Positions 21,761 to 60,306 of a DNA stretch of 64,000 nucleotides are shown here, one piece after another. Location: assembly GCA_963843575.1 (NCBI GenBank), contig CAWJKZ010000014.1:544001-608000 (forward strand). The letters are read 5' to 3'. The stretch comes from an uncultured Acidobacteriota bacterium (GTDB taxonomy: Bacteria; Acidobacteriota; UBA6911). Positions within the stretch are counted from its first letter, which is position 1, and every line of letters begins with the position of its first letter. The notes beneath the pieces were generated by a model. It saw only the letters and a list, made by a program, of their open reading frames with translations, did no database searches and was not told the origin of the DNA. A program made the position numbers and the translations under genes.

Positions 21761-24700
21761 TCACCCTTGCGGGAGGTTTGCCCGGCGCAAGACCGGCTCC
21801 GCGAGCGCTTCGTTATTGCCCGATTCCGCGCCCTCGCCGGCGCCTCCCCGGTGGTTCCGTCCGCGCCGCGAAGTGAGTCTGGCGGTCAGATCGTCGAGCA
21901 GCGAATACATCACCGGGACCGCGACGAGGGTGAGCAAGCGTCGAGGTGATGAGCCCGCCAATCACCGCCCGCGCCATCGGGGCCCGGATCTCCGATCCCG
22001 CACCGATCTCGAAGGCGAGCGGGAGCATCCCGAAAATCATCGCCAGCGTGGTCATGACGATCGGCCGGAAGCGGGTGCCGCCGGCCTTCACCAGCGCCGG
22101 ATCGCGGCTCGTGCCGTCCTTGCGCAGCTTGTTTGCGTAGTCGATCAGCAGGATGGCGTTTTTCGTGACCAGCCCCATCAGCAGGATGAGCCCGATCATC
22201 GACATGATGTTCAGCGTGTCGCCCACGGCCCAGAGCATAGCTACGACACCGATCAGCGACAGGGGGAGCGACAGCATGATGGAAAACGGGTGGACGAAGC
22301 TGCCGAACTGCGAGGCCAGGATCAGGTAGATGAAGACGACCGCCAGGATGAGCGCATCGTAGATGTACCCGAAGCTCTCGCTCATGTCCTCGCTCTGGCC
22401 CGTGTAGGAGATCTCAAATCCCGGGGGTAGGTTCAACCCTGCCGCCGGCCTGCTTGATGTCCTCGATCACGTTTCCGAGCGGTCGGCCCGCCGTGTTGGC
22501 CGAGACGCGGACCTCCCGGATCATGTCCATGTGCCGGATCTGCGAGGAACTGGTGCCCCGTTGGAAATGCGTCACCTGGTCGACGGGGATCAGCAGGTCG
22601 TGCCCGGCCGCGTCTTTCTTTGTGCTGAGTATCTCGACGTCGGCTGAGCGCCTCGAGCGAGCTCCTGTCCCGCGTGCCAGCCGGACGCGCACGTCGTAGG
22701 CGTCGCCGTCGGCATCTTCGTACTGGGTCGCGACCTCTCCGTTCAGCAGCGCGCGCAGGGTGACGGCGAGCGCATCGAGCCGGATACCGAGGTCAGAGGC
22801 GATCTTCCGGTCGATCCGGACCTTGACCTCGGGTTTGTCGCGGTCAAGGCTGCGGTCGACGTCCGCCGCCCCGGGAACCGAGCGGGCGAGCGTCGCCATC
22901 CGGGCGGACAGGCGGTCCAGCTCGGCCAGGTCCGGCCCGCGCACGCTGATCTGGATCGGCTTGGCATCCCCCATCTCTTCGACGTCCTCGACGCTGGTGA
23001 TCGCGCGCCCGTAGGAGGCCAACGCGCGGCGCAGGGTTGTGCGGAATTCCTGGAACCCGACCTGGCGCTCTTCCTTGGGCTTCAGTTTGACATAGACGAG
23101 CCCTTCGTTGAGTGCACCCGAGGCGTTGGCCCCGATGGTGGCGAAGGTGTAGCCGACCCCGGGCTGTTGCCGGATGCTCCGTACGAGGTCGCGGGCCACG
23201 TCCTCGGTCTGCTCCAGGCTGCTGCCCGGCGCAGTCTTGAACGACACCTGCAGCTCGCCGCGGTCATACTCCGGGAAGAACGACGTCCCGAGATGCGGGA
23301 ACACGGCGAGGCTCGCGAGGAAAAGCAGCAGAGCCGTGGACATGACCAGCCAGCGATGCCGGAGCGCGAACCCGATGGAGCGCTCGTACCGGAAGTGCAG
23401 GTTTTCGAACCACCGGTCGAACACGGCCAGCAGCCGCGCCAGCCCGCGCCTCCGGATCCCCTCTTCGATGGCAGGATCGTACCAGCGCGACGAAAGCATG
23501 GGGTCCATCGTGAACGAAACGAACAGGGAGACGAGCACGGCGAACGCGATCGTGATCCCGAACTCGTAGAAGAACCTGCCGACGATGCCACCCATGAAGG
23601 CCACCGGGACGAACACGGCTATGATGGAGAAGGTCGTCGCCATCACGGCCACGCCGATTTCCGAGGTCCCGATCCGGGCCGCATCGAAGTGGCTGCGCCC
23701 GTGCTGCATGTGCCGGACGATATTCTCGCGCACGACGATGGCGTCGTCGATGAGCAGCCCGACCGCGAGCGAAAGCCCCATGAGGGTCAGCATGTTCAGG
23801 GTGAACCCGAGGGCCCGCATCACGAGAAACGCCGCGATGATGGACACCGGCAAGCGTCAGGCCCGTGATGACGGTGCTGCGCCAGCTGTTGAGGAACAGG
23901 AAAACGACCAGGACCGTGAACACACCGCCGAGGAGCAGCGTGGTCTGCACGTCTTCGACCGCGTCGCGGATAAACAACGACATGTCCTTGACGACCTGGA
24001 TCGTCGTCTGGCCGGGCAGTTCCCGGTTCAGCCTGGGCAGCTCGGCCTTGACGGCCTCGGCGACGTCGACGGTGTTGCCGCCGGACTGCTTCCGGATTTC
24101 GAGCGCCAGGGCGCGCCGGCCGTCGATCAAGGCCAGCGTGCGCTGTTCCTCGTAGCCGTCGGCAATCGAGGCCACCTCCCGCAGGTACACCGGCACGCCG
24201 CGGATGGTCTTGACGATCAGGTCCTGGAAGGCCTCCGGCTGGACGAACTTCCCTTCCACCCTCACCAGCTCCTCGATCGGCCCCTGCGTGATTTTGCCCG
24301 CCGGCACCTCCAGGTTTTCGCCCCGCACCGCGGAGACGACCTCCGGAACTGTGAGGCTGTAGGTCTTGAGACGGTCGGGATCGAGCAGAATCTGGATCTC
24401 GCGGCGTTGGCCCCCTACAATAGTCGAGCGAACCCACGCCTTCGACGTTTTCCAGCCGCTTCTTGATGATTTTCTCCGCCAGGCTGGTGAGCTGCTTGGT
24501 CGTGTATTGCGAGGAGGTCACCGACAGCGAAAGAATCGGCAGGTCCGCCGGGATCCAGTCGCTGGATTACGGGCTCCTCCACCCCGGTCGGAAACTGATT
24601 GCGCAGCGCGCTCACTTTGCTCCGGACGTCCTGCGCCGCCGTGTGGATGTTGGTCCCCAGCTTGAATTCGGCGACGATCGACGAATACCCTTCGGTGCTG

Positions 24701-28239: not shown

Positions 28240-29031
28240 TCAGGGCCTGTTCGAGGCCGGGGCCGGCGGCTGCTCGACCAGAATCTTCCCGGTCAGGATG
28301 AAATCCAGGGTCTGGCCGAGGTCGTTCTCGTTGGCGGCGGCCAGCACCAGGCCGCCGGCGTCTTTGACGGCGTCGAAGTATTTCGCGGCGGTGTCGAAGG
28401 CGACGAAGTAGATCGCCGCGCGACCCTCCGCAGGTTGCCTCGCGATGGCGTCCGCCACGTCTCCCGGCGAGTATCCATTATTGTTCTGGCCGTCGGTGAT
28501 GACCAGCATGTGGCGGCGAGCCAGGCCCGACGCGTCCAGTTCACGCTTGGCCACGATCATGGCGTTCCCGATCGGGGTGCCTCCGCTGGGAACCATGTTG
28601 CGGGCCGCCGCGGCGGCCGCGGCCGGGTCCGGTTCTCCCAGTCTCACGACCCGACGGGGCGAGGGTTCGCCGTCGCGCGCGCTGAACTCATAAATCCCGA
28701 CCACGAGCCTGCGATCCGGGTGCTGCTGAACGAAGCCGCTCATCTGTTGCACGAGGGTCGTCACACACCGCCGCGCGATCTCGATCTTGGGCTTGTCCTG
28801 GCCGTCGGCATCCTTCACCCCGTCGCGCATGCTGCCCGAGGTGTCGACCAAGACCAGGACGGCGATGCCATCCTGCCATGTGGCGGAGGCCGGCGGGCGA
28901 AGCATCGCCTCGAGCGGGTTGATCCCCAAGGCGGAGTCGCCGCCTGATCGGGAGCGCGGCATTTCTAAGCACCCCGCTCCCCCTAGGGCGAGCAGACAGA
29001 CGGCCGATACGACGCGAAGCGGCTGGCTCAT
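28240..29031 (-). CDS. VWA-domain lipoprotein
   Basis: Lipobox-like GAGC, MIDAS DTSGSM, GGTPIG and VITDG. Confidence 0.88.
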   Translation of the reverse strand: MSQPLRVVSAVCLLALGGAGCLEMPRSRSGGDSALGINPLEAMLRPPASATWQDGIAVLVLVDTSGSMRDGVKDADGQDKPKIEIARRCVTTLVQQMSGFVQQHPDRRLVVGIYEFSARDGEPSPRRVVRLGEPDPAAAAAAARNMVPSGGTPIGNAMIVAKRELDASGLARRHMLVITDGQNNNGYSPGDVADAIARQPAEGRAAIYFVAFDTAAKYFDAVKDAGGLVLAAANENDLGQTLDFILTGKILVEQPPAPASNRP

Positions 29032-29081
29032 CTCTTCCTCCGGAGCGGGGGCGCGCGGCCGGAGCGCGCGCCCCCGGCCGC

Positions 29082-30794
29082 TCACTTCTGTTCCGGCGGG
29101 TAAACGCTGATTTCGACGCGCCGGTTCAGACGTTGATTGTCGGGATCGTTGGAATCGGCGGGCGAGTCCCAACCCTTCCCCTCGATGCTGAACTTGTTCG
29201 GGTCAAACTTGAACTTCTCGATCAGGGCGCGTTTGATCGCCTCGGCGCGGGCGAGGCTGAGGTCGCGCACAAACTGCACCGGCACCCCCTTCCCCTTCAT
29301 GCTCGAATCGGTGTGACCCTCGATGAGGATGACCGCCCTGGCAAACTGGCCCGAAAGGCGCGCGACCTGCTCGAGGGTGGCGTCGACGTTGGGATCGTAC
29401 AGCTTGCCCGGCACGACGTTGTTGTACTCGTCCCGCGCGGGCTCATAGGGATTGGCGGAGTTCGGGAAAAAGTTGATCCGGATGGTCTGGGTCAGGATGG
29501 GTGCTTCGGCGGGCACCTTGCGGAAGCTGGACGGTGTGAAGGTGGCGATGCTCTCGTCCTTCTGGTGGGCAAAGGTCCCCTTCTGCTGCAGCTTCTGCAG
29601 GAAGGAGAAGTCCATGACCTGATCGAACGGCACGGGGGCGTTGATGCGGCCCAGCTCACGGTAGACGTAGCTGGCGTTCTTCCAGGTGCGCTCGAGGTTG
29701 GTCGGGTTGGAGGAGTTCAGGAAGAACTGGACGTTTTCCGCGAAATTGGTCGCGTGGGCGTCGTTGCGCATGGACATGATCTCTTCCTGCTTCATGCCAA
29801 ACGCGTCCGCCATCCACTTGGCCGCCTGCTCGGGTTTGTCCTTGACGGCGTCCATCCCCTCGAATATGCCGGCGATGAGGCCGTCGACGATCTCCGGATG
29901 GTCCCGTGCGAAATCCGCGCGCAGGGCGTAGACATCAGCGATCAGCTTGTTCGCGTCGCTGGTGCTGGAGAGGATCCGGGTGCCGGCTACGCGCTCCGGG
30001 ATGTTGTAGATGTCCGGTGCCCACGAAACGCACCCGTCGATTTTCCTGTCGGCCACAAACGCGGCGGCCGCCTCAAAGGCAGTGGCGGTGTATTTGACGT
30101 TCACGTCGGCCGGGCGCAGCCCGGCCGACAGGAGCAGCGACGTGAGGTAGTACTCGCTCGGAGAGTTCTGTGCGAGCGTTATGGTCTTCTTGCGCAGATC
30201 GGCGACGGACTTGATGGAACTGCGCACCACGATCCCATCTCCCCCGCTCGACCAGTCGATCTGCTGTGCAATGCGCGGCGCGGTGCGCGAGTCGCGCATG
30301 AGTTCCGGGGCAAGCAGGACCATCATGTCGACCGTGCCCCAGAGCGTGTGCACCTCGCCGGCGGCGAAGGCGTCGCGCGCAGCCACGGGGTCATCCATGA
30401 GCACCATCTCGACGCGGAAACCGTACTTCTTGGCGAAGACGCTGTCCGGGTTCGGCTTGGTCCCGCGGTTGGCGGCGATCACGGGCAGCCACCCCGCCCA
30501 GACGTTGTAGCTGAAGCGCAGGATCTTTTCGTTGGCGTTCCACCTGTACTGGCTGGCGGCCTTGACCGCGGGGAGCTTGTCGGCGGGAATGTACTTGTAC
30601 TCCTTGACCGTCGTCACGCCCCCGGTGTCGGGCGCCTCGGCCTCCGGACCTTCGGCGACGCCGGACTGCTGTGAGGGTTTTGCGGACGGTCCCCGCTTCC
30701 AGACAAGGAATGCCCCGAGCCCGATCAGTCCCACGATGAGAAGCAATGAGATGGATTTGCCCAACGGTGTCAGTCGCGCACCATTGTCTGCCAT
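29082..30794 (-). CDS. Membrane-anchored NMT1/SsuA/TauA-type substrate-binding protein fused to a C-terminal OmpA-like domain
   Basis: One N-terminal TM; DWSSGGDGIV, SVADLRKK and SWAPD; C-terminal IEGHTDS, LSLARAEAIK and NRRVEI. Confidence 0.88.
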   Translation of the reverse strand: MADNGARLTPLGKSISLLLIVGLIGLGAFLVWKRGPSAKPSQQSGVAEGPEAEAPDTGGVTTVKEYKYIPADKLPAVKAASQYRWNANEKILRFSYNVWAGWLPVIAANRGTKPNPDSVFAKKYGFRVEMVLMDDPVAARDAFAAGEVHTLWGTVDMMVLLAPELMRDSRTAPRIAQQIDWSSGGDGIVVRSSIKSVADLRKKTITLAQNSPSEYYLTSLLLSAGLRPADVNVKYTATAFEAAAAFVADRKIDGCVSWAPDIYNIPERVAGTRILSSTSDANKLIADVYALRADFARDHPEIVDGLIAGIFEGMDAVKDKPEQAAKWMADAFGMKQEEIMSMRNDAHATNFAENVQFFLNSSNPTNLERTWKNASYVYRELGRINAPVPFDQVMDFSFLQKLQQKGTFAHQKDESIATFTPSSFRKVPAEAPILTQTIRINFFPNSANPYEPARDEYNNVVPGKLYDPNVDATLEQVARLSGQFARAVILIEGHTDSSMKGKGVPVQFVRDLSLARAEAIKRALIEKFKFDPNKFSIEGKGWDSPADSNDPDNQRLNRRVEISVYPPEQK

Positions 30795-30873
30795 GAGGAT
30801 TCCTCCTGTCATGAAGCCGGGGCCACGGCCCCCGGCACTATCTGCGAGCACGGATGATCAAACGCGCCCGGAC

Positions 30874-30895
30874 CCCTCGCGGTCAGCCGCGAGGG
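30874..30895 (-). terminator. GC-rich hairpin immediately after the pspA stop codon
   Basis: CCCTCGCGG-tcag-CCGCGAGGG, 9-bp stem; no U-tract. Confidence 0.4.
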
Positions 30896-31653
30896 TCAGC
30901 TGCCGGAGGACCCGCCGCCCGGCGTCGGGCCGATCTCCTTGGCCGAGGCCGGCTCTTCCGGCTGGGGGGCGGCCTGAATCCCCTGGCTCGCCAGGAACTC
31001 GGCCAGCGCCGTCTGTTCCAGGGCCTTGCGCTCGTTCTCCTTCTCCTCGACCTGCTCGATGTCGACCAGGTCGTGCGCCACGCGGGCCTTGCCGGCCGAT
31101 TCCTCGTAGCGCTTCGCCAGGATCTCCTCGACCGTCTTCATCGTGTCCCCGAGGTCCCCGACCTTGAAGGCGGCACTGCCCAGCGCGGCCGCGGCCTCGG
31201 CCTGCGCCTCCTTGATCTTGACCTGCGACAGTTGTTTCTCCAGCCGGTGTACCTTGTCCTCGAACTCTTTCTGCGCGACCTTCGCCTGACGTAGGTTGCC
31301 CTGGTAGGCCTCCTCGGTTTCGGCAAACTCCTGCGTGTCTGTGGTCAGTCCCCCTTCAGTTCCTGCAGCTCGCGGGCCAGGCTTCCGGCCAGTTCCATGT
31401 TGCCCGCCCTGTGGTTAGCCAGGATGCGGCGCTCCAGCTCCTGAGCCCTCGTCGTCTTCCCCTTGATCTGGGTCTTGAGGCGCTCGGCAACGCCGGCCAT
31501 CCGGGCCAGGGCCATGTTGTATTGCGCCATTTTGTCGCGGAATTCCTGGCGGGCGGCCTCCATCAGCGCCTCGGGATTTCTCTGCTCCAGACCGCTGACG
31601 AAGATACTGATGAACCCGCGGAAGAGTCTGCCGATCCGTGCAAAAACAGCCAT
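30896..31653 (-). CDS. PspA/IM30 (Vipp1/ESCRT-III superfamily) protein; single indel near 31347
   Basis: Amphipathic N-terminus MAVFARIGRLFRGF, then LEQRNPEALME, long coiled coil and AGNMELAGSLA. Restoring one base gives a continuous ~252-aa ORF ending ALAEFLASQG plus a flexible tail. Confidence 0.82.
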
Positions 31654-31775
31654 TGCGCCCCCCTTCGAGGTTGGGACATGTCTCCAGTACAATCGTTGTC
31701 AGGAATAATTCGCCCATTCTAGTCCACACCGGCGGCAAAGCGACAGAAGAACCCACGCGCGGCGCGGGGAGGATC

Positions 31776-32423
31776 TCAGCCGTCGTCCTCGTCTGTGGTT
31801 ATCACTCGGTCCTCGATCAGGAAGCCGACGCTGCGGGCGAGTTCCTGCTCGACCTGACGCTTGCGCCGCCGCCACTCGCGCCACTGCTCCCGGTCGGCCT
31901 CGGCCTTCTGCCGCAGCGCGTCGCGCTCTGTCTGCAGCGCCGCGATCCCGGCCTCGATTTCGGCAGCCTTGCGCTCCCGCACGAGCTCCCGCTCCTTGAG
32001 TTTCCTCCGCGCGAACTCCTCGAAGGCATCCAGGGCCCGGTCGCGGGCGACTGCGTCCCGGATGACGTCCTGCACTTCGACCTCGTCCGCCGCGAGCGCG
32101 TCCAGGATGCGCTTCTGGATCTCCGCCCGTTCGAGCTTCTGCAACGCGTCGTCCCTGAGCACCTCGGACAGTTTCTCAACAGTCCAACCCCGTGCGGCCG
32201 CAGCTATCCCGGCGGCCTGAAAGACCTCATGGAAAGGGACGCTCAGTTCGGCCGGCAGGTCCGCGAGCGTGCGCACCTCCTCGGACCTGATCTCGGTCAT
32301 CAGTTCAGTGAGGGTGATGGTGCGGGTCCGAAGTTTCACCGGGGATTGGACGGTCGCGGGCAGGGCCTTCTCCAGTATCCCGAGACGGTCCCCCAGAGCC
32401 TGCATGATCTCGACCAGTCGCAT
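31776..32423 (-). CDS. Hypothetical alpha-helical/coiled-coil protein (~215 aa)
   Basis: ATG 2 nt after the AAA stop; charged heptad-rich C-terminal half; distal part of ORF 31776-33668. Confidence 0.75.
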   Translation of the reverse strand: MRLVEIMQALGDRLGILEKALPATVQSPVKLRTRTITLTELMTEIRSEEVRTLADLPAELSVPFHEVFQAAGIAAAARGWTVEKLSEVLRDDALQKLERAEIQKRILDALAADEVEVQDVIRDAVARDRALDAFEEFARRKLKERELVRERKAAEIEAGIAALQTERDALRQKAEADREQWREWRRRKRQVEQELARSVGFLIEDRVITTDEDDG

Positions 32424-32425
32424 GG

Positions 32426-34159
32426 CTAGGTGAATCTCCTCAGCTCTTCGATTCGAGCTTCGAGTTGTTCGGGCGGCAGGTCGCGGAAGCGCGGGGGCAG
32501 GAAGCGGCTGTCGGTGCATTCTCGTACCGCGACCAGATCCATGTACTCCAGCTTGCGCGTGTGCGCGCTCGGGCGCACCTCTCTGAAGACCTCGGCCAGC
32601 GTCTCCTTCAGCGGCCGCCGCGGCGCCGGCGTCAGCTCGTGCACGCGCAGTGCCCGGACGAGCACCCCTTCGATCTCGTTCCCCCCCAGGGCGGCGTGGC
32701 CAGCGAGCTCCGGCAGGTCCTGTTCCGCCAAGGGGAACTTGAGCTTGCGCGCCACCGACAGCAGCAGCGCCCGCAACTCCTCGGGGCTCTCGGGCGGGAA
32801 GAGCGGGATGTGAACGTCGAGGCGGCCCTGCCGTTTCAGATCGACCTCGAGCAGGTCGGGCCGGGACGTGGCAAAGACCCAGAGTATCCGGCCCCGGTTG
32901 CGCGTGTCCGACATCTCCTTGGCCAGCATCGAGTAGACGCGGCCCGAAAGGCCGCTGTCGGAGTCGCCCCCACCGCGCTTCCCGGCGGCCTGATCGGCCT
33001 CGTCCACGAAGACGACCACCTGCCCGAGCGCCCTCAGCACGGAAAAGATCTTCTCGAGGTTGGACTCGGTCGCCCCGACCCAGCGGTCCCGGAAGTTCTT
33101 GAACACGACGCAGGGTATCCCCAGCTCCCCGGCCCAGCACTGCACCAGGAAGGTCTTCCCGGTGCCGATACGGCCCGTGATGAGGTAGCCCATCGGCAAC
33201 GCGTGCAGGGTCCCGCGCCGCAGCAATTCCGCGTCGTCGCGCAGCCACGATTTCACCGCGTCGGAGCCGGCGACGTTGTCCAGGGTGAAGGGCGATTCCA
33301 GGAACTCGAGCAGGTCCTGGCACTCTTTCTCGATCTGCTCCTTTTTCATCCGGGACAGCCATGCGGACGAGACGGTGCGGCCGGTTTTCAGCGCCATGGC
33401 GAGAACGGTGCGCGCCCCGACCCGGCTGAGCCCTGTCAGCCGCCGCCCGAGGACGTCCATCGGGACCTCGCACCGGGACGGGAGTTCGGGCAGGGTGGTC
33501 GCAACCAATCCCTCGAGGTACCGGCACATCTCCGGCTCGTCCGGCAGCGGCATCCGCAGGGTGCGCGCGTGCGGGTTCCGCACGATCAGATCGTTCAGGT
33601 CGTGCAGCCCCTCGGTGAGCAGCACCGTGACGATGTTGGACTGCAGGATGGCGGGGTCGTTGGCCCAACCCAGCACCTTCACGACGTTGGAGCTGAAGGG
33701 CCCGCCGAGCTGGATCGGATCGCCTCGCGGCACCACGAACTCGGCGAAATCGATGATCACGGCGATCCGGCGCGAGCCGCCGGCGTCGCGCCCGCGCAGC
33801 GACTGGAGGTTCAGGGTGCGCAGCAGGTACCGGTCGATCAGCTCCATCGCGGGGCCCGGCTCACGCGTCTGACCGATGGTGAAGGCCTGTTCTCCCAGAG
33901 CCTGCTTGAGCCAGTCCGCCCAGTCCTCGGCGCCACGGGTCGCCCGGATGCCCTTCCCGCGGTCGTAATGCAGCACCGTGTCGTACGTCTCGAACATGAC
34001 CTCTTCGAGAAAGGCCTTCAGCGACAGCAGCCGCGGCCCCGACGGGCCGACGGCGGGAACGACGTCGAATATGTTTCCGTGCACGACGAATTGGGCCACC
34101 GAACCCGACTTGAACAGGTCGCGCATTTCGGCCGCCCAGGACGGCAGTTCAGGACTCAT
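32426..34159 (-). CDS. AAA+ ATPase with a degenerate N-terminal AAA-like domain and an active C-terminal domain
   Basis: C-terminal Walker A GRIGTGKT, pore loop RWVG, Walker B VVFVDEAD and SRH ATSRPD...KRQGRLD; N-terminal QFVVHGN and AVIIDFAE look like eroded Walker motifs. Confidence 0.9.
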   Translation of the reverse strand: MSPELPSWAAEMRDLFKSGSVAQFVVHGNIFDVVPAVGPSGPRLLSLKAFLEEVMFETYDTVLHYDRGKGIRATRGAEDWADWLKQALGEQAFTIGQTREPGPAMELIDRYLLRTLNLQSLRGRDAGGSRRIAVIIDFAEFVVPRGDPIQLGGPFSSNVVKVLGWANDPAILQSNIVTVLLTEGLHDLNDLIVRNPHARTLRMPLPDEPEMCRYLEGLVATTLPELPSRCEVPMDVLGRRLTGLSRVGARTVLAMALKTGRTVSSAWLSRMKKEQIEKECQDLLEFLESPFTLDNVAGSDAVKSWLRDDAELLRRGTLHALPMGYLITGRIGTGKTFLVQCWAGELGIPCVVFKNFRDRWVGATESNLEKIFSVLRALGQVVVFVDEADQAAGKRGGGDSDSGLSGRVYSMLAKEMSDTRNRGRILWVFATSRPDLLEVDLKRQGRLDVHIPLFPPESPEELRALLLSVARKLKFPLAEQDLPELAGHAALGGNEIEGVLVRALRVHELTPAPRRPLKETLAEVFREVRPSAHTRKLEYMDLVAVRECTDSRFLPPRFRDLPPEQLEARIEELRRFT

Positions 34160-34192
34160 GCAATCTCCGCGGGCACACCCTCCGCTGCGGGG

Positions 34193-35053
34193 CTACTGCG
34201 ATTCAGAAGCCGGAACGTTGACGGAGAGCGGGGGAGGCTCCGCCAGCAGGTCCTCCACGGCGCCGTAGATCTGTTGCTGCTCCTTCATCCACTCGGTGGT
34301 TCCCCCGAGTGTCGTCGTGATCTGATCTATGCGCTGCGACAGGGCTTCCGGGTCGGCGGCCAAGACCGCCTGCTCGCGCACGAGCTCGACCTGATCCTGT
34401 ATCCGCGTCAACTCCGCGTCGAGGAAGGCCAGCTTGTCGCGCGCCTCCTGCCTCTTCTGGAGGCGTTGCTGCAGGATCTCCGCCTGACCGGTGAGGCTGC
34501 GCCGCAACTCCTCTCCCATCGCTTCGTCTTTCAGGCGGCTCTCCAGGCCCGAGATGCGCTGCCGCAGGCGCTCCGTATCCTCCTGCGTGTTGTCGGCGCT
34601 CCGTACGATGCGCTCGATGGCCTGCCGGGCGAGGAGCAGCCGCAGGTAGACCCAGAGCAGCCGGCCCAGACCCTGCCCCTGGGCGTCGATGCCCGATGCC
34701 GGGGCGTTGAGCCGGTACTGTTGTTCGAGGATGGCCCGGCAACGCACGTCGAGTTCCCGGTACCGTCGCTGGCCGTCGGGCCCGAGCTGGGCGACCAGCT
34801 GATCGACGCGTTGCTGCCACGTGCGCCTCTCTTTCCACTGCAGCGTGGCGTCGACAAAACGTTGGAAGCGGTTGTTGGTCGAAAGGGCGCCGAGGTAGGC
34901 TAACTCCAGGCCCAGGCCCATCACCCAGAACCCGGGGCTGACCAGGCCCAGCAGGACGAACGCGCCGATGCCGACCCAGTTCGGCGGTACGAACATACCG
35001 ATGGGCCGGGCGTGGAAAGCCTCGCGAATATAGTCCGAGAATCCCGGTTTCAT
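34193..35053 (-). CDS. Hypothetical membrane-anchored coiled-coil protein
   Basis: N-terminal hydrophobic hairpin (WVGIGAFVLLGLV, FWVMGLGLELAYL) then long heptad repeats; ATGA overlap with the ABC ATPase. Confidence 0.8.
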   Translation of the reverse strand: MKPGFSDYIREAFHARPIGMFVPPNWVGIGAFVLLGLVSPGFWVMGLGLELAYLGALSTNNRFQRFVDATLQWKERRTWQQRVDQLVAQLGPDGQRRYRELDVRCRAILEQQYRLNAPASGIDAQGQGLGRLLWVYLRLLLARQAIERIVRSADNTQEDTERLRQRISGLESRLKDEAMGEELRRSLTGQAEILQQRLQKRQEARDKLAFLDAELTRIQDQVELVREQAVLAADPEALSQRIDQITTTLGGTTEWMKEQQQIYGAVEDLLAEPPPLSVNVPASESQ

Positions 35054-35913
35054 ACGCCAACCCGAGGGGGCCCCGCGCCGGCGCCCGCCGGGAGCCCCAC
35101 CGCTTCCGAAACGCGGCGGAAGGCTTCCGTGACGACCGACACGGCGTTTTTGAATTCCGGCCGCTCTTGCGCCACGAGCGGAGGGATCTCCACGCTGCGC
35201 GGAATGGATTCGGAAATATCATAAGCGATCTGCCCCGGGGCGTGGGTAAATATCCACACCCGCTCCCCCAGGTAAACCGCTTCGGTCACGCTGTGGGTCA
35301 CGCACAGGATTGTCGGGTGGACGCGGTGCCAGAGCCGCACGACCAGTTCCTGCATCTCGAGGCGAGTGGGTTCGTCCAGCGCGGAAAACGGCTCGTCCAT
35401 GAGGAGGATCCGCGGCTCCATGGCGAGCGAGCGGGCGATCGCAACCCGCTGCTGCTGGCCTCCGGACAGCTGGTGGGGGTATTTTGCGGCGTGATCGGCC
35501 AGACCGACCCGCTCCAGCAGTTCCTCGACGCGGGCCCTGCGTCCGGCGCCGTCCAGCGGCAACCCCTTCCTGTTGATGTCCAGACCGAACATGACGTTCT
35601 GAAAAACGGTCAGGTGGGGGAAAGAACTGTACTGCTGAAAGATCATGCCCCGGTCGCGGCCCGGCCCCTGTACGGGCTTCCCTTTGACGAGCACCTCCCC
35701 GCCGGTCGGCAGCAGGAACCCGGCGATGAGGTTCAGCATCGTGCTCTTGCCGCAACCCGACGGTCCGATGATGGTGATGAACTCGCCGTGGTCGGGAACG
35801 TCCGGGACGGCCACCGAGATGTCGTTCAGGGCGAGAAATTGGCCGAACCGGACGCTGGCGTCGCGCAGCTCGACGACGGGCGGGACCCGGCGCGCATCGG
35901 TTGTGAGCGTCAT
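35050..35913 (-). CDS. ABC ATPase, NitT/TauT (TauB/SsuB-like) family
   Basis: GPSGCGKST, IFQQYSSFPHL, YPHQLSGGQQQR, LLMDEPFSALD and VTHSVTEAVYL. Confidence 0.95.
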   Translation of the reverse strand: MTLTTDARRVPPVVELRDASVRFGQFLALNDISVAVPDVPDHGEFITIIGPSGCGKSTMLNLIAGFLLPTGGEVLVKGKPVQGPGRDRGMIFQQYSSFPHLTVFQNVMFGLDINRKGLPLDGAGRRARVEELLERVGLADHAAKYPHQLSGGQQQRVAIARSLAMEPRILLMDEPFSALDEPTRLEMQELVVRLWHRVHPTILCVTHSVTEAVYLGERVWIFTHAPGQIAYDISESIPRSVEIPPLVAQERPEFKNAVSVVTEAFRRVSEAVGLPAGAGAGPPRVGV

Positions 35914-36734
35914 CTTCGATCCCTTCGGTACGGAAACAGCACGCCCCCCAGCCGGGCCCATCCGAGGTCGGCAACCCACGCGATCAGGGTGATGATGACG
36001 ATCACCAGGTACACCCGTCCGGACATCGCACGCCGCCGCGCGGTGTCGATCAGGTCGCCGAGCCCCCCCGCCTTGACGACCACCTCGGCCAGGACGAGAT
36101 AGGTCCACCCGACCCCGAACGCCAGCCGCATCGAGTGCCAGATCTCCGGTGCGGCGACAGGCACGAGGACCCGGCGGATCACCTGCCAGCGCCCTGCCCC
36201 GAGGGTGTATGCGGTCCTCAGATAGACGTCCGGGACCGCGTCGATGGCGTTGACTACAGCCGGCAGCAGGAAAATGGAGAAGGCGAGGGCCAGAAACACC
36301 ACTTTCTGAATCTCGTCCACGCCGAACCACGACATGGTCAACGGGACCAGCGTGGCGATCGGTATGTACCCGCTGGCCGTCACCAGCGGACCGAAGGTGC
36401 TCCGCGCGCTTCCGAAGGCCCCCATGACGATCCCCAGCGGGAGCACCACGGCCAGCGCCAGGATGAACCCGAGCCCGACCCGGGTCAGGCTGATGATCGT
36501 GTGGTCCAGCAGCCCACGGTTGTCCTGATCGCTGCTGCCTACCAGGTCCTTCAGGCTGTCGACCACTTCGGCGGGGCTCGGGAGGATCGTGGGGCCGAGC
36601 ACGCGCTCTTCGGCCGCCCCCCGGGTGGCATACCACCACAGGATCACGAGGACGAGGATGGGCACCAGACCGAGCACCAGCGCCGCACCGCGGGGAACGC
36701 GGCCGCGTATTGCCACGAACCATCTCGGAAGCAT
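35910..36734 (-). CDS. ABC permease, NitT/TauT (TauC/SsuC-like) family
   Basis: ILPSPAEV, multiple TM segments, EAA-like loop AYTLGA and LAEVV..GGLG. Confidence 0.92.
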   Translation of the reverse strand: MLPRWFVAIRGRVPRGAALVLGLVPILVLVILWWYATRGAAEERVLGPTILPSPAEVVDSLKDLVGSSDQDNRGLLDHTIISLTRVGLGFILALAVVLPLGIVMGAFGSARSTFGPLVTASGYIPIATLVPLTMSWFGVDEIQKVVFLALAFSIFLLPAVVNAIDAVPDVYLRTAYTLGAGRWQVIRRVLVPVAAPEIWHSMRLAFGVGWTYLVLAEVVVKAGGLGDLIDTARRRAMSGRVYLVIVIITLIAWVADLGWARLGGVLFPYRRDRR

Positions 36735-36850
36735 GGGAGAGACATTAAGCAAGTACAACTCCGGTGTCAACTGCCGCGCCGCAACTCACTCCCGGCCGTG
36801 ACCTATACGCGGAATTCCAGCGGTTTATTCAGTTGTGAACGGCAATATCC

Positions 36851-37066: not shown

Positions 37067-38008
37067 CTAGCTGTTGACGGCCACCTGACCCCCGCAGGGG
37101 ACGGAACCCAGGACCACCTGGTTGCGCCCCATGGATTTGGCGCGGTACAGGGCCGCGTCGGCCACGCGGATCAGGCCGTTCACGTCGGTGGCGTCATCAA
37201 ACGACCCGCAGGCCACTCCGGCGCTTATGGTCACCCGGACGTCGCCCTCGGGTAGCACCACCGGTTCGCACATGACTGAAGCCCGTACGCGTTCCGCGTT
37301 GCCGACGCCGTCGGCGGCATCACATCCGGGCATCAGGATGAGGAACTCCTCCCCACCGTAGCGCCCGATGAGGTCGTAACGGCGTACCGCACGGCGGAGA
37401 CGCTGCGCAATGTCGACGAGCACGACGTCGCCCGTAAGGTGGCCGTAGGTGTCGTTGATGACCTTGAAGTGGTCGACATCGGCGAGGATGATCCCGAGGC
37501 AAGAGCGGTCGCGGCCGGAGCGGTCGAGTTCCCGACGGAGCTGTTCCAGTACCTCGGCCCGGCTGTAGAGCCCGGTGAGGCTGTCGTGGGAGACCATGTA
37601 GCGGAGGGATTCGCGCGTGGCCAGCAACTGTCCCTGCAGCTCGATGATGCGGCGGCCGGCATTCAGCCGCATCCGCAGTTCCTGAGGGTCGAACGGTTTC
37701 GAGACGTAATCGTCCGCTCCCGCTCCCATGCCGTGGATGACGTCGGCCTTCTGGGTCTTCGAGGTCAACAGCATGAGGTAGCGGTAGGGTTCGCCCAACT
37801 GCTCCCGGACTTTGCGGCAGACGTCGATGCCGTCCATGCCCGGCATGATCCAGTCGAGGATGGCCAGTTCCGGGCCGTTGTCGGCCGATAGTAATGCCCA
37901 GGCCTCTACTCCGTCGCAGGCGGTTACGACCTCGTAACCCCAGCGTACGAGCGTCTCCTTGAGGATGTGCCGGGAGATCTCGTCGTCTTCCGCAAGCAGC
38001 ACTTTCAA
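37067..38008 (-). CDS. Response-regulator diguanylate cyclase (REC-GGDEF)
   Basis: LLAEDD, LDWIMPGMDG, GADDYVSKPF, HDSLTGL, DVDHFKVINDTYGH, I-site RRYD and RYGGEEF; TTG start overlaps the upstream stop. Confidence 0.93.
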   Translation of the reverse strand: MKVLLAEDDEISRHILKETLVRWGYEVVTACDGVEAWALLSADNGPELAILDWIMPGMDGIDVCRKVREQLGEPYRYLMLLTSKTQKADVIHGMGAGADDYVSKPFDPQELRMRLNAGRRIIELQGQLLATRESLRYMVSHDSLTGLYSRAEVLEQLRRELDRSGRDRSCLGIILADVDHFKVINDTYGHLTGDVVLVDIAQRLRRAVRRYDLIGRYGGEEFLILMPGCDAADGVGNAERVRASVMCEPVVLPEGDVRVTISAGVACGSFDDATDVNGLIRVADAALYRAKSMGRNQVVLGSVPCGGQVAVNS

Positions 38009-41000
38009 GCCAGCATCCCCTGCCCCAATTCCTCCGCAACGGGCACAAAACGTTCGATCTCGGACTTCAACTCGGTAAAGGCCCGACGCGCTTCGTCCGG
38101 GAGTCGCTCCCGGCCCGCCGCCTCCAGGCGGGCCGCGGCCTCGACCGCAGGTTGGGCACCAAAGTTCGCAATGCTGCCCTTGACGGAATGGGCGGTGCGT
38201 TCGAGCAGGACGAAATCCTCGTGCTCGATGGCTTCCCGAAGTTGTTGAAGGAGGCCGCCGGCCTTTTCCCGGAACAACCGGAGCGCCTTCAGGAGAAACT
38301 CGCCGTCGTTGCCGAACCGGGCCACGACCTCGTCGAGGTTGACGATATCGCGCGAGAGTGTCGCCTCGACCTTCCGGGCTTCGGTAGAGGATCTGAGTCC
38401 GCCCTGCGCGATCGATTCGATCGTCTGAAGCAGTTCTGCCGGGTGGATCGGCTTGGACAGGTACCGGTCCATGCCGGCGGCCAGGCAACGTTCCCGGTCG
38501 CCCTTCATGGTGTGGGCGGTCATCGCGACGACCGGAACTTGCGCTAGGACCGGGTCATCCAGCTTCCGGATGGCCGCAGTCGCCTCGAAGCCGTCCATGA
38601 CGGGCATCTGCACGTCCATCAGGACAAGGTCGAAACGGCCTCGTTTCAGGGCCTCGACCGCGAGCAGGCCGTTGTCGACAACGACCGTTTGATGGCCGCG
38701 CTTTTCCAGGACCCGATACACAATCTGCTGGTTGATCGCGTTGTCCTCAGCGACGAGGATGCGGAGGCAATCCGGCGCGGTCGAGGAAGGGCCGTCCGCC
38801 GACGGCCCGGACAGAGAACCGGTCTTCCCCGCCAGCTCGCAGATGCGAATTCAGCAGATCCGACTGGACAACGGGTTTCCTCAGGAATGCGTCGACACCG
38901 TACTCACTGTATTCGCGCAGACCGCCGAGGTTGGCCGACGTCAGCAGCAGGATGCGCAGTCGCGCCAGCCGAGGGTTCTGCCGGATGCGGCGCGCGACCT
39001 CCAAACCGTCCATTCCCGGCATCATGGTATCGAGCGAGCACGATCCGGAAAGGATCGGGCGAGTCCAGGGCGGCCTCCAGCAGCTTCAGCCCGGAAGGAC
39101 CGTCCACCGCCAGTTTCGGGCGCATCCCCCAGTTCAGGAGCATCGCCTGCAGTATTCTGCGGTTGACCTGGTTGTCGTCGACGACGAGTACGGGCAGATC
39201 GTGCAGCTCCTGAGGGTCAGCCCCCTTATCGAAACGCCTCCGCGGCAACCTGGAACAGTACGGTGAAGTGGAACTCGCTCCCGCGTCCCGGCTCGCTGTC
39301 GACCCAGATCTCGCCCCCCATCATCGCGACCAGCTTCGACGAGATCGTCAGCCCGAGGCCGGTTCCGCCGTACTTCCGGGTCATGGAACCATCGGCCTGC
39401 GAAAACGCCTTGAAAATCACTTCCTGTTTCTCGGGCGGGATTCCGATGCCGGTGTCGGTGATGGCGAAATGCAGCGCGACGCAATCCTCGGAATGCGCCT
39501 CGGAATCGATGTGGACGATGACGTCTCCGCGCTCGGTGAACTTGATCGCGTTCCCCACGAGGTTCAGCACAACCTGACGCAGCCGGTCCGGGTCGCCGAT
39601 CAGGGCATCGGGGACCGTGGGGAGCACGTTGCACGACAGCTCGAGCCCTTTCTGATGGGCCCGCATCGCGAGCATCTTGAGGGCAGTCCCCAGCGTGTCG
39701 CGCAGCCGGAATTCGACCGGGTCGAGTTCGAGCTTTCCGGCTTCGATCTTGGAAAAATCGAGGATGTCGTTCAACAGCCCGAGCAGCGAGTCGGCTGACA
39801 CCTTCACGGTCTGCATGTACTCGCGCTGTTCCCGGCTCAGCGACGTATCGAGCAGGAGTTCGGTCATCCCGATGATTCCGTTCATCGGGGTGCGGATCTC
39901 GTGGCTCATGTTCGCCAGGAACTCGCTCTTGGCGCGGCTCGCGGACTCGGCCGCCTCTTTGGCCCTTCTCAGTTCCTCGGCTACCTTCTTTCGCTCCGTG
40001 ATGTCCTCGACAAACCCCTCGAAGTAGAGCGGTTCGCCGTCTTCATCGGTGACGGTGCGGGCCTTCTCCGAGGTCCAGATGATGGTGCCGTCCCTGCGGT
40101 AGACGCGCGACTCGAAGCCGGTGATGGAACCGTTTTCCCTGGTCAGGCGGACGAATTTCTCCCGGCGACCTTCTTCGACGTATATTCGGCGGCTTGCACC
40201 CCGGCTGGCGATGAGCTCTTCAGGCGAATTGTATCCATAGATCCGGGCAAGCGCCGGGTTGCAGGTGAGGAAACGCCCGTCGAGGGTGGTCTGGAAGACT
40301 CCCTCCTGTGCGTTCTCGAAAATGGCGCGGTACTTGGCCTCGGCCTCCCGCAGGGCCCGTTCCGTGTCCTTGCGGCCCGTCGCATCTCGAGCGATCCCAT
40401 GGACCCCGGTCGTCACGCCGTTCACCACGATCGGGCGCGCGCTCACTTCAACTGCGACACGCCGCCCATCCTTGGCGCATATCACCAGGTCGCAGGTCGT
40501 GCCGCACTCCGGGCCTGCCATTGACCCCATCAGGCCGCGCGCCCTGTCGAGATCTTCGGCTGTCACGATCTGGGCGAAGTTCATACCCAGGGCTTCCTGC
40601 TTGGAGTACCCCGTGACCCGTTCGATGGCGGAGTTGACGGAGGTGAGGTTGCCCTCCGGGTCGAGCGTGTAGATGATGTCGGTGGTGTTGTCGAACAGCG
40701 AGGCGATCCAGGCTTCGTCCTGGCAGCGTGCGGCTTTGGCGGCGACGGCAGCGTTTGCATCGCGGAAAAAACCGACCAGCCCAGTAATTTGTCCCAAGGA
40801 ATCCCGGAGTGGAGCTTTCGTGTAAGAGACCCAGGCGAGACTGGCACCGGGATGAAGCGTCGGGGCGATCCTTTCGGTCAGGGGCACACCGGTTTCCAGG
40901 ATGCGCTGTTCCTCGGCAAAGAAAGCCTCGGCCTGATCGATGCCCAGATAATCAAAGTCCGTCCTGCCAACCACTTCGGCGGGATCCATGACGCCAAGCG

Positions 41001-41145
41001 CCTCGGCGTACGGGCGGTTTACCTTGATGTACCGGGATTCGGTGTCCTTGAAACAGACGCCGTGGGAAACACAATCCATGAGCCCCTGCAGCAACTCGCC
41101 GGCATCTGGACGGCTGTTTCCGCGGACATCATTGTTTTCGGGCAT
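38005..41145 (-). CDS. Hybrid sensor histidine kinase (3 PAS, HisKA, HATPase, 2 REC, Hpt); indels near 39240, 39030 and 38845
   Basis: FLANMSHEIRTPMNG, NLVGNAIKFT, DTGIGI, GGTGLGL, VVDDN, VAEDN, MDVQMPVMDG and Hpt AHSVKGS. Confidence 0.9.
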
Positions 41146-41339
41146 ATAGGAGAAGCGCCTCCCGCCTGGAGCCGCATGTGAGCCGGGTCTGCTGTCGGCG
41201 GCAGTTCGGCGCAAAAATACAGCGCTGCCTCTATTCAGTTCCAGACTGTCTTTTCGGCTTCCGCCGGAATTTGTCTTAGGCCAAATCGGGGCAAACGCCC
41301 GGTTGAGTCTCGACCGGGCGCATTTGATTGTGCTTTCTC

Positions 41340-60235: not shown

Positions 60236-60306
60236 CGCTGGTGGATGGCACGCCGATTGCATGGTTAGGCCCACGCGGTACCCCGTCCGGAAAGAGAGGA
60301 ATTGTG

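Follow-up and report, generated by a model that had tools for sequence, protein, structure and literature searches.

INTRODUCTION

PspA and Vipp1 now count, by common acceptance, among the ESCRT-III proteins of bacteria. In the account of Makarova et al. (2024; PMC11188069), systems with both Vps4 and ESCRT-III are restricted to archaea and eukaryotes, and a passage of a 2025 review (PMC7619361) describes a Vps4-like ATPase as seemingly absent from bacteria. The remodeling of PspA rods, as presented by Junglas et al. (2024; PMC11746142), needs disassembly and reassembly by an unidentified factor, for which those authors offer "chaperones or PspF." The closest described gene clusters are those of Ravi et al. 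(2024, mSystems; PMC11237479): operons of PspA, an inactive and a classical AAA module, a transmembrane (TM) "Snf7" protein, an ATP-binding cassette (ABC) ATPase, a permease, and a PBPB-OmpA protein, for which the main text of that article proposes ATP-dependent membrane remodeling by analogy with Snf7/Vps4 and suggests a link between remodeling and solute transport. Here we describe an operon of this class, with a pspA gene and a two-cassette AAA ATPase gene, in 64,000 nucleotides (nt) of GC-rich DNA (∼65% GC) from an uncultured Acidobacteriota bacterium (contig CAWJKZ010000014.1, positions 544,001 to 608,000; this whole stretch is referred to as the window). The core of the operon is conserved across three phyla, and its ATPase could drive the turnover of PspA.

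All six components named by Ravi et al. lie in one co-oriented cluster in the window, and the N-terminal AAA copy is inactive in both cases. The operon class and the functional idea have already been published as a hypothesis in that article, and the window is one more example. An initial annotation of the window, made from its letters, had suspected that the gene order was already present in surveys of PspA and Snf7 and knew of no experimental characterization; our full-text literature searches likewise turned up no experimental work on operons of this type. The terms vWA, "Acidobacteria," "Planctomycetes," and "Gemmatimonadetes" do not appear in the main text of Ravi et al., which does not treat the protein cc2, the two operon subtypes, or the amine oxidase described below; its supplements may cover them. 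The present analysis adds conservation counts with denominators, the strict co-occurrence of cc2 and the ABC genes, the periplasmic partners SBP-OmpA and VWA, a motif in the PspA tail, and evidence that a break in pspA is an artifact.

RESULTS AND DISCUSSION

A conserved core within an eight-gene operon

A scan of the window for open reading frames (ORFs) and Pfam families located eight genes, all on the minus strand, between positions 28240 and 36770. In gene order, they encode an ABC permease, an ABC ATPase subunit, a helical protein of 286 amino acids (aa) with two TM segments (TMcc; 34193 to 35053), an AAA ATPase with 577 residues in two cassettes (32426 to 34159), a soluble and partly coiled-coil protein of 215 aa (cc2), PspA (30896 to 31653, interrupted in the assembly), a membrane-anchored fusion of a solute-binding protein with an OmpA domain (SBP-OmpA; 29082 to 30794), and a protein with a VWA domain. 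Pfam families could be assigned to six of the eight proteins, TMcc and cc2 being without one. The order, orientation, and positions of the genes were those given in the initial annotation, as was the coupling of several junctions: the first two genes overlap by ATGA at 35910 to 35913, the second and third by ATGA at 35050 to 35053, and the gaps that follow are 33, 2, 122, 101, and 50 nt, the shortest separating the AAA ATPase and cc2 genes.

In order to evaluate how widely this arrangement is shared, relatives of the ATPase were collected from contigs representing one genome per species. Of 183 confirmed relatives, the best 80 loci were retained; their ATPases were 66 to 93% identical to that of the window over the full length and came from Acidobacteriota, Gemmatimonadota, and Planctomycetota, plus one Burkholderiales bin. 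Neighbors were counted by tblastn with nine pieces of the window against these 80 loci, and only loci with sufficient flank entered each count. TMcc was directly upstream of the ATPase in 73 of 75 loci, and its stop codon overlapped the ATPase start codon in 43 of 67. PspA was downstream of the ATPase in 63/64 loci, directly adjoining it in 45 of these 64, and was followed by SBP-OmpA in 58/60. A VWA gene was found downstream in at least 33/55 loci, a lower bound because tblastn at an E value of ≤1e-5 can miss divergent copies, and cc2 was found in 22/64. The core of TMcc, AAA ATPase, PspA, and SBP-OmpA is conserved across three phyla as one co-conserved system; the initial annotation had named lack of co-conservation as a result that would count against its proposal.

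The system is patchy in the phylum of the window, because the D1-like half of the ATPase was matched (E value of ≤1e-10) in only 43 of 301 sampled genomes, including 3 of the 6 others from the same family. In a quick maximum-likelihood tree of 77 ATPases, the sequences grouped by phylum (one change for Planctomycetota, two for Gemmatimonadota, and four for Acidobacteriota), and the branches between phyla were very short. The ATPase on the Burkholderiales contig (L049, 2,554 nt) was nested among near-identical Acidobacteriota sequences, and this contig is probably misbinned with no transfer involved. Blind clustering of ORFs in the flanks yielded no further widely shared gene, a search confounded by antisense ORFs in GC-rich DNA.

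Several individual loci showed departures from the common layout. In a Tepidisphaeraceae locus (L056:9983-13491), an ATPase with 66% identity is followed by a 613-aa ORF without a family. An acidobacterial locus (L002:11922-13774) has two tandem pspA genes, coding for 338 and 252 aa, after the ATPase gene, and gave no tblastn match for SBP-OmpA or VWA. In two Planctomycetota loci (L078:11821-14640 and L079), a gene for 940 aa that matches no Pfam family stands between the ATPase and cc2 genes. About 11 Gemmatimonadota loci, in addition to L007 (1890-4039), have the heat shock genes hrcA and dnaJ upstream of TMcc on the same strand, which may reflect lineage synteny or a shared stress regulon.

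An AAA ATPase with a Cdc48-like second domain

The only Pfam match in the ATPase was PF00004 (E value, 6e-23), at residues 326 to 452 only. The domain in which it lies (D2, about residues 320 to 560) scored 82.2 bits against a cutoff of 21.2, and its best sequence match in the PDB was D2 of Cdc48 (8.9e-35), with VAT and D2 of p97 also among the best solved relatives. The motifs GRIGTGKT, VVFVDEAD, RWVG, and ATSRPDLLEVDLKRQGRLD were unchanged or nearly so in all 37 aligned sequences; we read these four as Walker A, Walker B, the first pore loop, and the region of the arginine fingers. With them, the protein has the Walker A, Walker B, pore-loop aromatic residue, and second region of homology with arginine fingers of the classical AAA clade. 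Judged by these motifs, D2 should be an active, threading-competent classical AAA domain.

The other half of the protein (D1-like, about residues 1 to 290) is without GK[ST] and without the DE pair and has "HGNxFD" and "IIDFAEF" at the Walker A and Walker B places. No Pfam match was obtained for residues 1 to 325 and no PDB profile match for this half, and a profile comparison of the two halves gave a probability of 0.2%. In an AlphaFold2 (AF2) model of the ATPase (predicted local distance difference test [pLDDT], 76.5), residues 1 to 447 superposed on D1-D2 of p97, Cdc48, NSF, and Rix7 over 358 to 374 residues, with root mean square deviations (RMSD) of 5.6 to 7.1 for NSF and Rix7, compared to about 10 for p97. 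Residues 2 to 370 superposed on a Vps4 cassette over 227 aa (RMSD, 3.8; Z score, 11.8), and D2 superposed on Vps4 over 152 aa (RMSD, 3.1; Z score, 13.2), tied with p97 D2, PAN, and FtsH. The earlier designation of this protein as a tandem AAA+ ATPase holds at the level of the fold, in that the model lies on the D1-D2 pairs of p97, NSF, and Rix7, but it does not hold at the sequence level for the N-terminal half. As modeled, the ATPase is a compact type II AAA protein with a dead D1-like domain and an active D2.

The resemblance to the archaeal and eukaryotic ESCRT-III/Vps4 (CdvB/CdvC) pair consists of an ESCRT-III-superfamily gene lying beside a classical-clade AAA gene with an intact threading pore loop, together with the superposition of the D2 large domain on Vps4. 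However, the ATPase has two cassettes where Vps4 has one, its sequence is nearer to D2 of Cdc48 and VAT, and no MIT domain was found in it, the model opening with the D1-like alpha/beta domain, which lies on p97 D1 starting within residues 1 to 6. The NCBIfam model for CdvC gave 35.6 bits against a cutoff of 650. Furthermore, the partner in this operon is PspA and not Snf7, and the periplasmic wall-binding partners have no counterpart in ESCRT. With Cdc48/p97/VAT and NSF, the ATPase shares two stacked AAA cassettes, and D2 gave the best sequence matches. It differs from them in having no N-terminal double-psi-barrel or adaptor-binding domain, in a D1 that has lost both Walker A and Walker B, and in its size (577 residues compared to about 730 to 840); the CDC48 family model TIGR01243 gave 70.2 bits against 802.65. 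By their curated models, the protein belongs to neither the Vps4 nor the Cdc48 family. Sequence and model together indicate that the ATPase is Cdc48-like and is not a Vps4 orthologue, so that at best it would work like Vps4. The part of Vps4 that the initial annotation had assigned to it does not match its architecture.

The nearest sequences of D2, which are those of Cdc48/VAT D2 and FtsH, also speak for the possibility that the ATPase is a motor for the extraction or quality control of membrane proteins, in the manner of Cdc48, Msp1, or a protease-less FtsH. This motor would act on TMcc, on the anchor of SBP-OmpA, or on the transporter, while PspA would only seal or stabilize the membrane in the meantime. 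TMcc, as the gene most tightly coupled to that of the ATPase, with the overlapping junctions counted above, fits this explanation; its conserved C-terminal tail could be the threading entry, and there is no MIT-type domain for ESCRT-III recognition. However, PspA is as constant a neighbor as TMcc and is unusually conserved, as would be expected of a direct partner more than of a bystander, and the operon contains no protease or degradation partner. Extraction appears unlikely.

The C terminus of the ATPase (window positions 32429 to 32440) is conserved as "RRF[VTI]," in which the penultimate, aromatic residue hardly varies, and could be a docking tail. Complex prediction with the full ATPase and residues 60 to 286 of TMcc gave a score of 0.00 in both runs, which weighs neither way on binding.

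PspA and the break in its gene

The gene for PspA is readable in one frame to position 31348 and then continues in the −1 frame. Alignment with three relatives placed the break at one missing base at 31347/31348, just after a run of G, which results in a premature stop. The initial annotation had recognized that a repair was needed; the repair consists of exactly one base, and the deletion is not inside the G run. The N-terminal piece matched PF04012 (PspA_IM30) with an E value of 1.2e-7 and 32.1 bits, just below the cutoff of 33.9, because the gene is broken. All 36 of 36 PspA orthologues matched this family (best, 2.4e-11), and PspA of the closest relative (L022) scored 34.7 bits, above the curated cutoff, over positions 2 to 213 of 220 in the model. 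The product of 30896 to 31653 is a genuine member of the family, as had been predicted on the understanding that a missing match would overturn the proposal. A profile of the PspA family found no solved PspA or Vipp1 chain by sequence.

Apart from one row with masked (X) residues, the PspA orthologues were 72 to 84% identical across phyla. Common to them are an amphipathic segment at the N terminus, a C-terminal helix that is conserved as "ALEQxALAEFLASQGIQ," a variable linker, and a tail, "KE[IM]GP," that is almost invariant. It is possible that this tail serves as a handle for the ATPase motor.

With its one-base deletion and premature stop, the assembled pspA could be a true pseudogene in an operon that is decaying in this genome, and no second PspA_IM30 gene is present in the assembly (6.68 Mb, 88% complete), in which pspA is the sole match to the family. 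However, a 151-nt public contig from run X2 matches positions 31251 to 31400 and is otherwise identical over 150 nt, with one extra base behind 31347 that restores the frame on hand reading; this support has a depth of 2 and comes from one contig, four public runs having been compared with pspA. The two pieces of the gene are still 97% and 94% identical to pspA of L022, an in-frame pspA was seen in 70 of the 72 related loci where both pieces are represented, and the other operon genes are all intact. Four further frame changes relative to L022 lie in two other genes, three of them (near 39233, near 39035, and at 38800 to 38840) splitting a 1,080-aa hybrid histidine kinase gene (38008 to 41214) and one lying near 23853 in an efflux gene. 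Five frame changes in three genes within ∼18 kb are the pattern of assembly indels, unlike that of decay. Decay of the operon therefore seems improbable, and the break is probably a sequencing or assembly error in a gene that is intact in the organism. No sequence in RNA run X11 matched pspA, and none of the sequencing runs contained more than 0.12 of the sampled words.

A GC-rich hairpin at 31752 to 31768 on the minus strand, in the gap of 122 nt between cc2 and pspA, was detected as a terminator-like pattern match. It may be an attenuator or a processing site; the evidence for it is weak because the scan for such patterns returned 3 sites in the region compared to 6.4 expected. A GC-rich inverted repeat without a T run is present at 30855 to 30890 on the minus strand, directly 3′ of the pspA stop codon, and a similar repeat lies 3′ of the stop codon of the SBP-OmpA gene.

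Comparison with classical Psp systems

In the classical Psp systems (PspF-ABC of Escherichia coli, LiaIH of Bacillus subtilis, and ClgR-PspA-PspM-PspN of Mycobacterium tuberculosis), as in the operon described here, PspA is combined with a small integral membrane partner, and TMcc is in the positional role of PspB/C, LiaI, or PspM. The operon differs from these systems in having no PspB, PspC, PspF, or Lia domain and in that its ATPase is not a sigma-54 activator. Pfam models detected no PspB, PspC, or PspF domain in the operon or its flanks and no Lia domain in the operon, in agreement with the absence of these genes reported before; elsewhere in the genome, a 65-aa ORF with a PspC domain (83.9 bits) is present at G000:C25:34294-34464 (L093), unlinked to the operon.

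In E. coli, the AAA+ protein PspF is bound and inhibited by PspA, a precedent in the classical Psp system for PspA as the partner of an AAA+ protein (reviewed in PMC7619361). PspA might similarly regulate or adapt the ATPase studied here rather than being its substrate, with membrane stress freeing the ATPase to act elsewhere, and the frequency with which the two genes adjoin (45/64 loci, as given above) is consistent with such an arrangement. Against it, the ATPase is of the classical AAA clade, with a pore loop for threading, and is without a sigma-54 interaction or DNA-binding domain. Nor was a sigma-54 promoter found upstream of the operon; matches in the window numbered 23 compared to 22.65 expected, and the one match close to the start of the permease gene departs from the consensus at both of its invariant dinucleotides. 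A regulatory role of PspA toward the ATPase is distinctly unlikely. The sole zero-mismatch match in the window to the −24/−12 consensus (TGGCAC N5 TTGCA) is at 60246 to 60261 on the plus strand, distant from the operon.

TMcc

The AF2 model of TMcc (pLDDT, 79.1) has helices at residues 24 to 38 and 41 to 59, followed by six long helices. In the predicted layout, a short helix at the N terminus precedes a membrane hairpin of two helices, and a cytoplasmic helical domain of ∼225 aa ends in a conserved tail. The family is large, with 1,475 representative clusters at an E value of ≤0.001.

Ravi et al. name the TM protein of their operons a Snf7 homologue in the main text, whereas Snf7 homology was not confirmed for TMcc. 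No match to PF03357 (Snf7) was obtained at the TMcc locus at an E value of ≤10, Snf7 and PspA were not within the 25 most frequent families in Pfam scans of TMcc members (n = 55 and n = 103), and profile comparisons of TMcc with a PspA alignment gave probabilities of 0.8% and 1.8%. Foldseek returned no match at an E value of ≤0.001, a wide structural search returned only generic helical bundles (best Z score, 9.6), and a PDB profile search returned only chance coiled-coil matches. Helical folds are hard to compare, which limits the weight of these negative results with respect to Snf7 and PspA. The nearest named Atlas cluster was that of Rv2743c/PspM (0.87), but this lead was not confirmed, as the Pfam model for Rv2743c gave no match to TMcc at an E value of ≤10.

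Transporter genes and cc2

The permease gene (35910 to 36770, minus strand) codes for a protein of the TauC/SsuC/NrtB type (BPD_transp_1; E value, 1.4e-16); its longest ORF opens with TTG at 36770, and the start codon is likely to be the ATG at 36734. The ABC ATPase gene (35050 to 35913, minus strand; ABC_tran, 1.6e-33) has an ATGA overlap at each end. The best NCBIfam matches were TauC for the permease (119.8 bits, cutoff 342), the taurine ATPase TauB for the ABC ATPase (200.8 bits, cutoff 357), and a urea-type binding protein for the SBP (74.3 bits, cutoff 333.9). From these matches, the transporter is clearly classed among the TauT/NitT ABC importers, but its substrate cannot be named because no NCBIfam equivalog cutoff was reached.

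The adjacent cc2 gene (31776 to 32423, minus strand) has a product for which no Pfam or NCBIfam match was found, and the Atlas offered only clusters of hypothetical proteins; relatives were confined to its own family, of which 25 orthologues were aligned. Its occurrence separates two types of loci. Type A loci, which include the window, have the permease, the ABC ATPase, cc2, and an SBP-OmpA protein that is ≥56% identical to that of the window. Type B loci have neither the ABC genes nor cc2, and their SBP-OmpA proteins are about 24 to 30% identical to that of the window and match OmpA and, weakly, NMT1. In the set of 50 loci whose flanks are complete, cc2, the permease, and a high-identity SBP-OmpA were all present in 16 and all absent from 34, with no mixed locus; cc2 occurred only in operons with ABC genes, the same 50 loci being divided into 16 with both and 34 with neither and none being discordant. 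In four Planctomycetota loci, the ABC genes come after VWA instead of before TMcc, and since they keep to the cluster there, their linkage survives rearrangement.

The complete set of permease, ATPase, and binding protein in the window, together with the remodeling-transport link suggested in the main text of Ravi et al., would be expected if the cluster were primarily a wall-tethered solute importer whose transporter is regulated or protected by PspA, the AAA ATPase, and TMcc. However, 34 of the 50 complete loci are without the permease and ABC ATPase but keep TMcc, the AAA ATPase, PspA, and SBP-OmpA; the transporter is therefore an accessory part. None of the three proteins reached an equivalog cutoff, as noted above. 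We regard the importer as quite improbable as the primary function. The same absence of the ABC genes, with SBP-OmpA kept, weakens the suggestion in the initial annotation that an ABC module senses or positions the machinery.

Periplasmic proteins

The SBP-OmpA protein has an NMT1/SsuA-like solute-binding fold (NMT1, 1.5e-7; Phosphonate-bd, 2.2e-5) and a C-terminal OmpA-like peptidoglycan-binding domain (1.1e-11). The latter matched PF00691 with 45.4 bits (cutoff, 27.2) at residues 487 to 576 of the longest ORF, which places it in that family and bears out the fusion proposed at the outset. An N-terminal membrane anchor, read from the translation as a hydrophobic stretch, can be added to this description, and the gene is preceded by an AGGAGG ribosome-binding site.

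The VWA gene (28240 to 29031, minus strand) codes for a protein with a signal- or lipoprotein-like N terminus. It matched VWA_2 (4.4e-10; 40.6 bits, cutoff 27) and VWA (5.8e-9), and "DTSGS" in the translation agrees with DxSxS, presumably the motif of the metal ion-dependent adhesion site (MIDAS), which places the protein among VWA domains with a MIDAS.

In a type B locus from Vicinamibacterales (L006:14065-15696), a flavin amine oxidase with a twin-arginine translocation (TAT) signal (PF01593, 3.3e-59) is encoded between SBP-OmpA and VWA, and a homologue is found at the same offset in 12 loci. This insertion points tentatively to amines or polyamines of the periplasm.

Neighboring genes

Upstream of the operon are genes for a response-regulator diguanylate cyclase, a response regulator-Hpt protein, and a PAS histidine kinase, and downstream are those for a TetR regulator and an OEP/HlyD efflux set. 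These flanking genes are unrelated to the operon.

This setting is relevant to whether the cluster is an antiphage defense system, for which phage challenge had been among the tests proposed in the initial annotation and for which the ATPase gives weak cross-matches to IetA/IteA models (PADLOC, 2.2e-10; NCBIfam, 30.3 bits compared to 510). However, PADLOC produced only generic AAA and ABC cross-matches, with none for six of the eight proteins, and the flanks consist of signaling and efflux genes. Identities of 70 to 80% across phyla and clustering near the level of phyla in the tree are unlike fast-evolving mobile defense genes. Thus, a defense function is extremely improbable.

A model for ATP-driven turnover of PspA

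We tentatively favor, as plausible if short of probable, an interpretation in which the operon encodes one envelope maintenance system around a bacterial ESCRT-III-type protein and the ATPase drives PspA turnover. The gene content, its conservation, the intact catalytic motifs, and the domain architecture are matters of observation. PspA would polymerize at the inner membrane, on the cytoplasmic side, via its N-terminal amphipathic helix. The ATPase, whose D1 would be structural and nucleotide-dead and whose D2 would be competent for threading, would be made together with TMcc and would probably work with it at the membrane, pulling PspA subunits from the polymer with the use of ATP, which would lead to turnover, a change of shape, or clearance after repair. 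Threading might start at the conserved C-terminal helix and the "KE[IM]GP" tail of PspA. On the periplasmic side, SBP-OmpA would tether this site to the peptidoglycan and perhaps bind a small ligand, and the VWA protein, where present, would act as a metal-dependent adhesion module. In type A operons only, the permease and ATPase of the TauT/NitT type and cc2 would be added, coupling the SBP domain to transport. The physical contacts, PspA as the substrate, and the direction of signaling in this scheme are what we infer; nucleation of PspA polymers by the membrane coiled-coil was a further proposal of the initial annotation.

Several points weigh against this interpretation. Contact between any two of the operon proteins is a prediction, and no test in this analysis tied TMcc to ESCRT-III. 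The ATPase is without an MIT or other recognizable substrate recognition domain with which to find PspA, and in L056 an ATPase is present without TMcc or PspA nearby. The conservation counts overstate the independent support, because related loci are kin. PspA has a weak ATPase activity of its own, and, as described by Junglas et al. (PMC11746142), the rods respond to nucleotide without a partner. Finally, if the deletion in pspA is real, the strain is without any intact PspA.

A more far-reaching version of the turnover model is possible but more doubtful. At least three phyla would own an ATP-driven recycling motor for an ESCRT-III-type polymer that evolved independently of Vps4 from a Cdc48-like two-ring ATPase. 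The machine would span the envelope, with TMcc docking the motor, the motor threading the "KE[IM]GP" tail of PspA, and SBP-OmpA and VWA setting place and time.

Operons of this type supply a candidate for the disassembly of PspA polymers in cells, one that is testable with four purified proteins. Experimental handles include cc2 and the ABC genes as a strict pair, the retained SBP-OmpA (58/60) and VWA (at least 33/55), and the conserved PspA tail. If the recycling motor proves true, it would answer what disassembles PspA/Vipp1 polymers in bacteria and would contradict the statement in the 2025 review (PMC7619361) on the absence of a Vps4-like ATPase.

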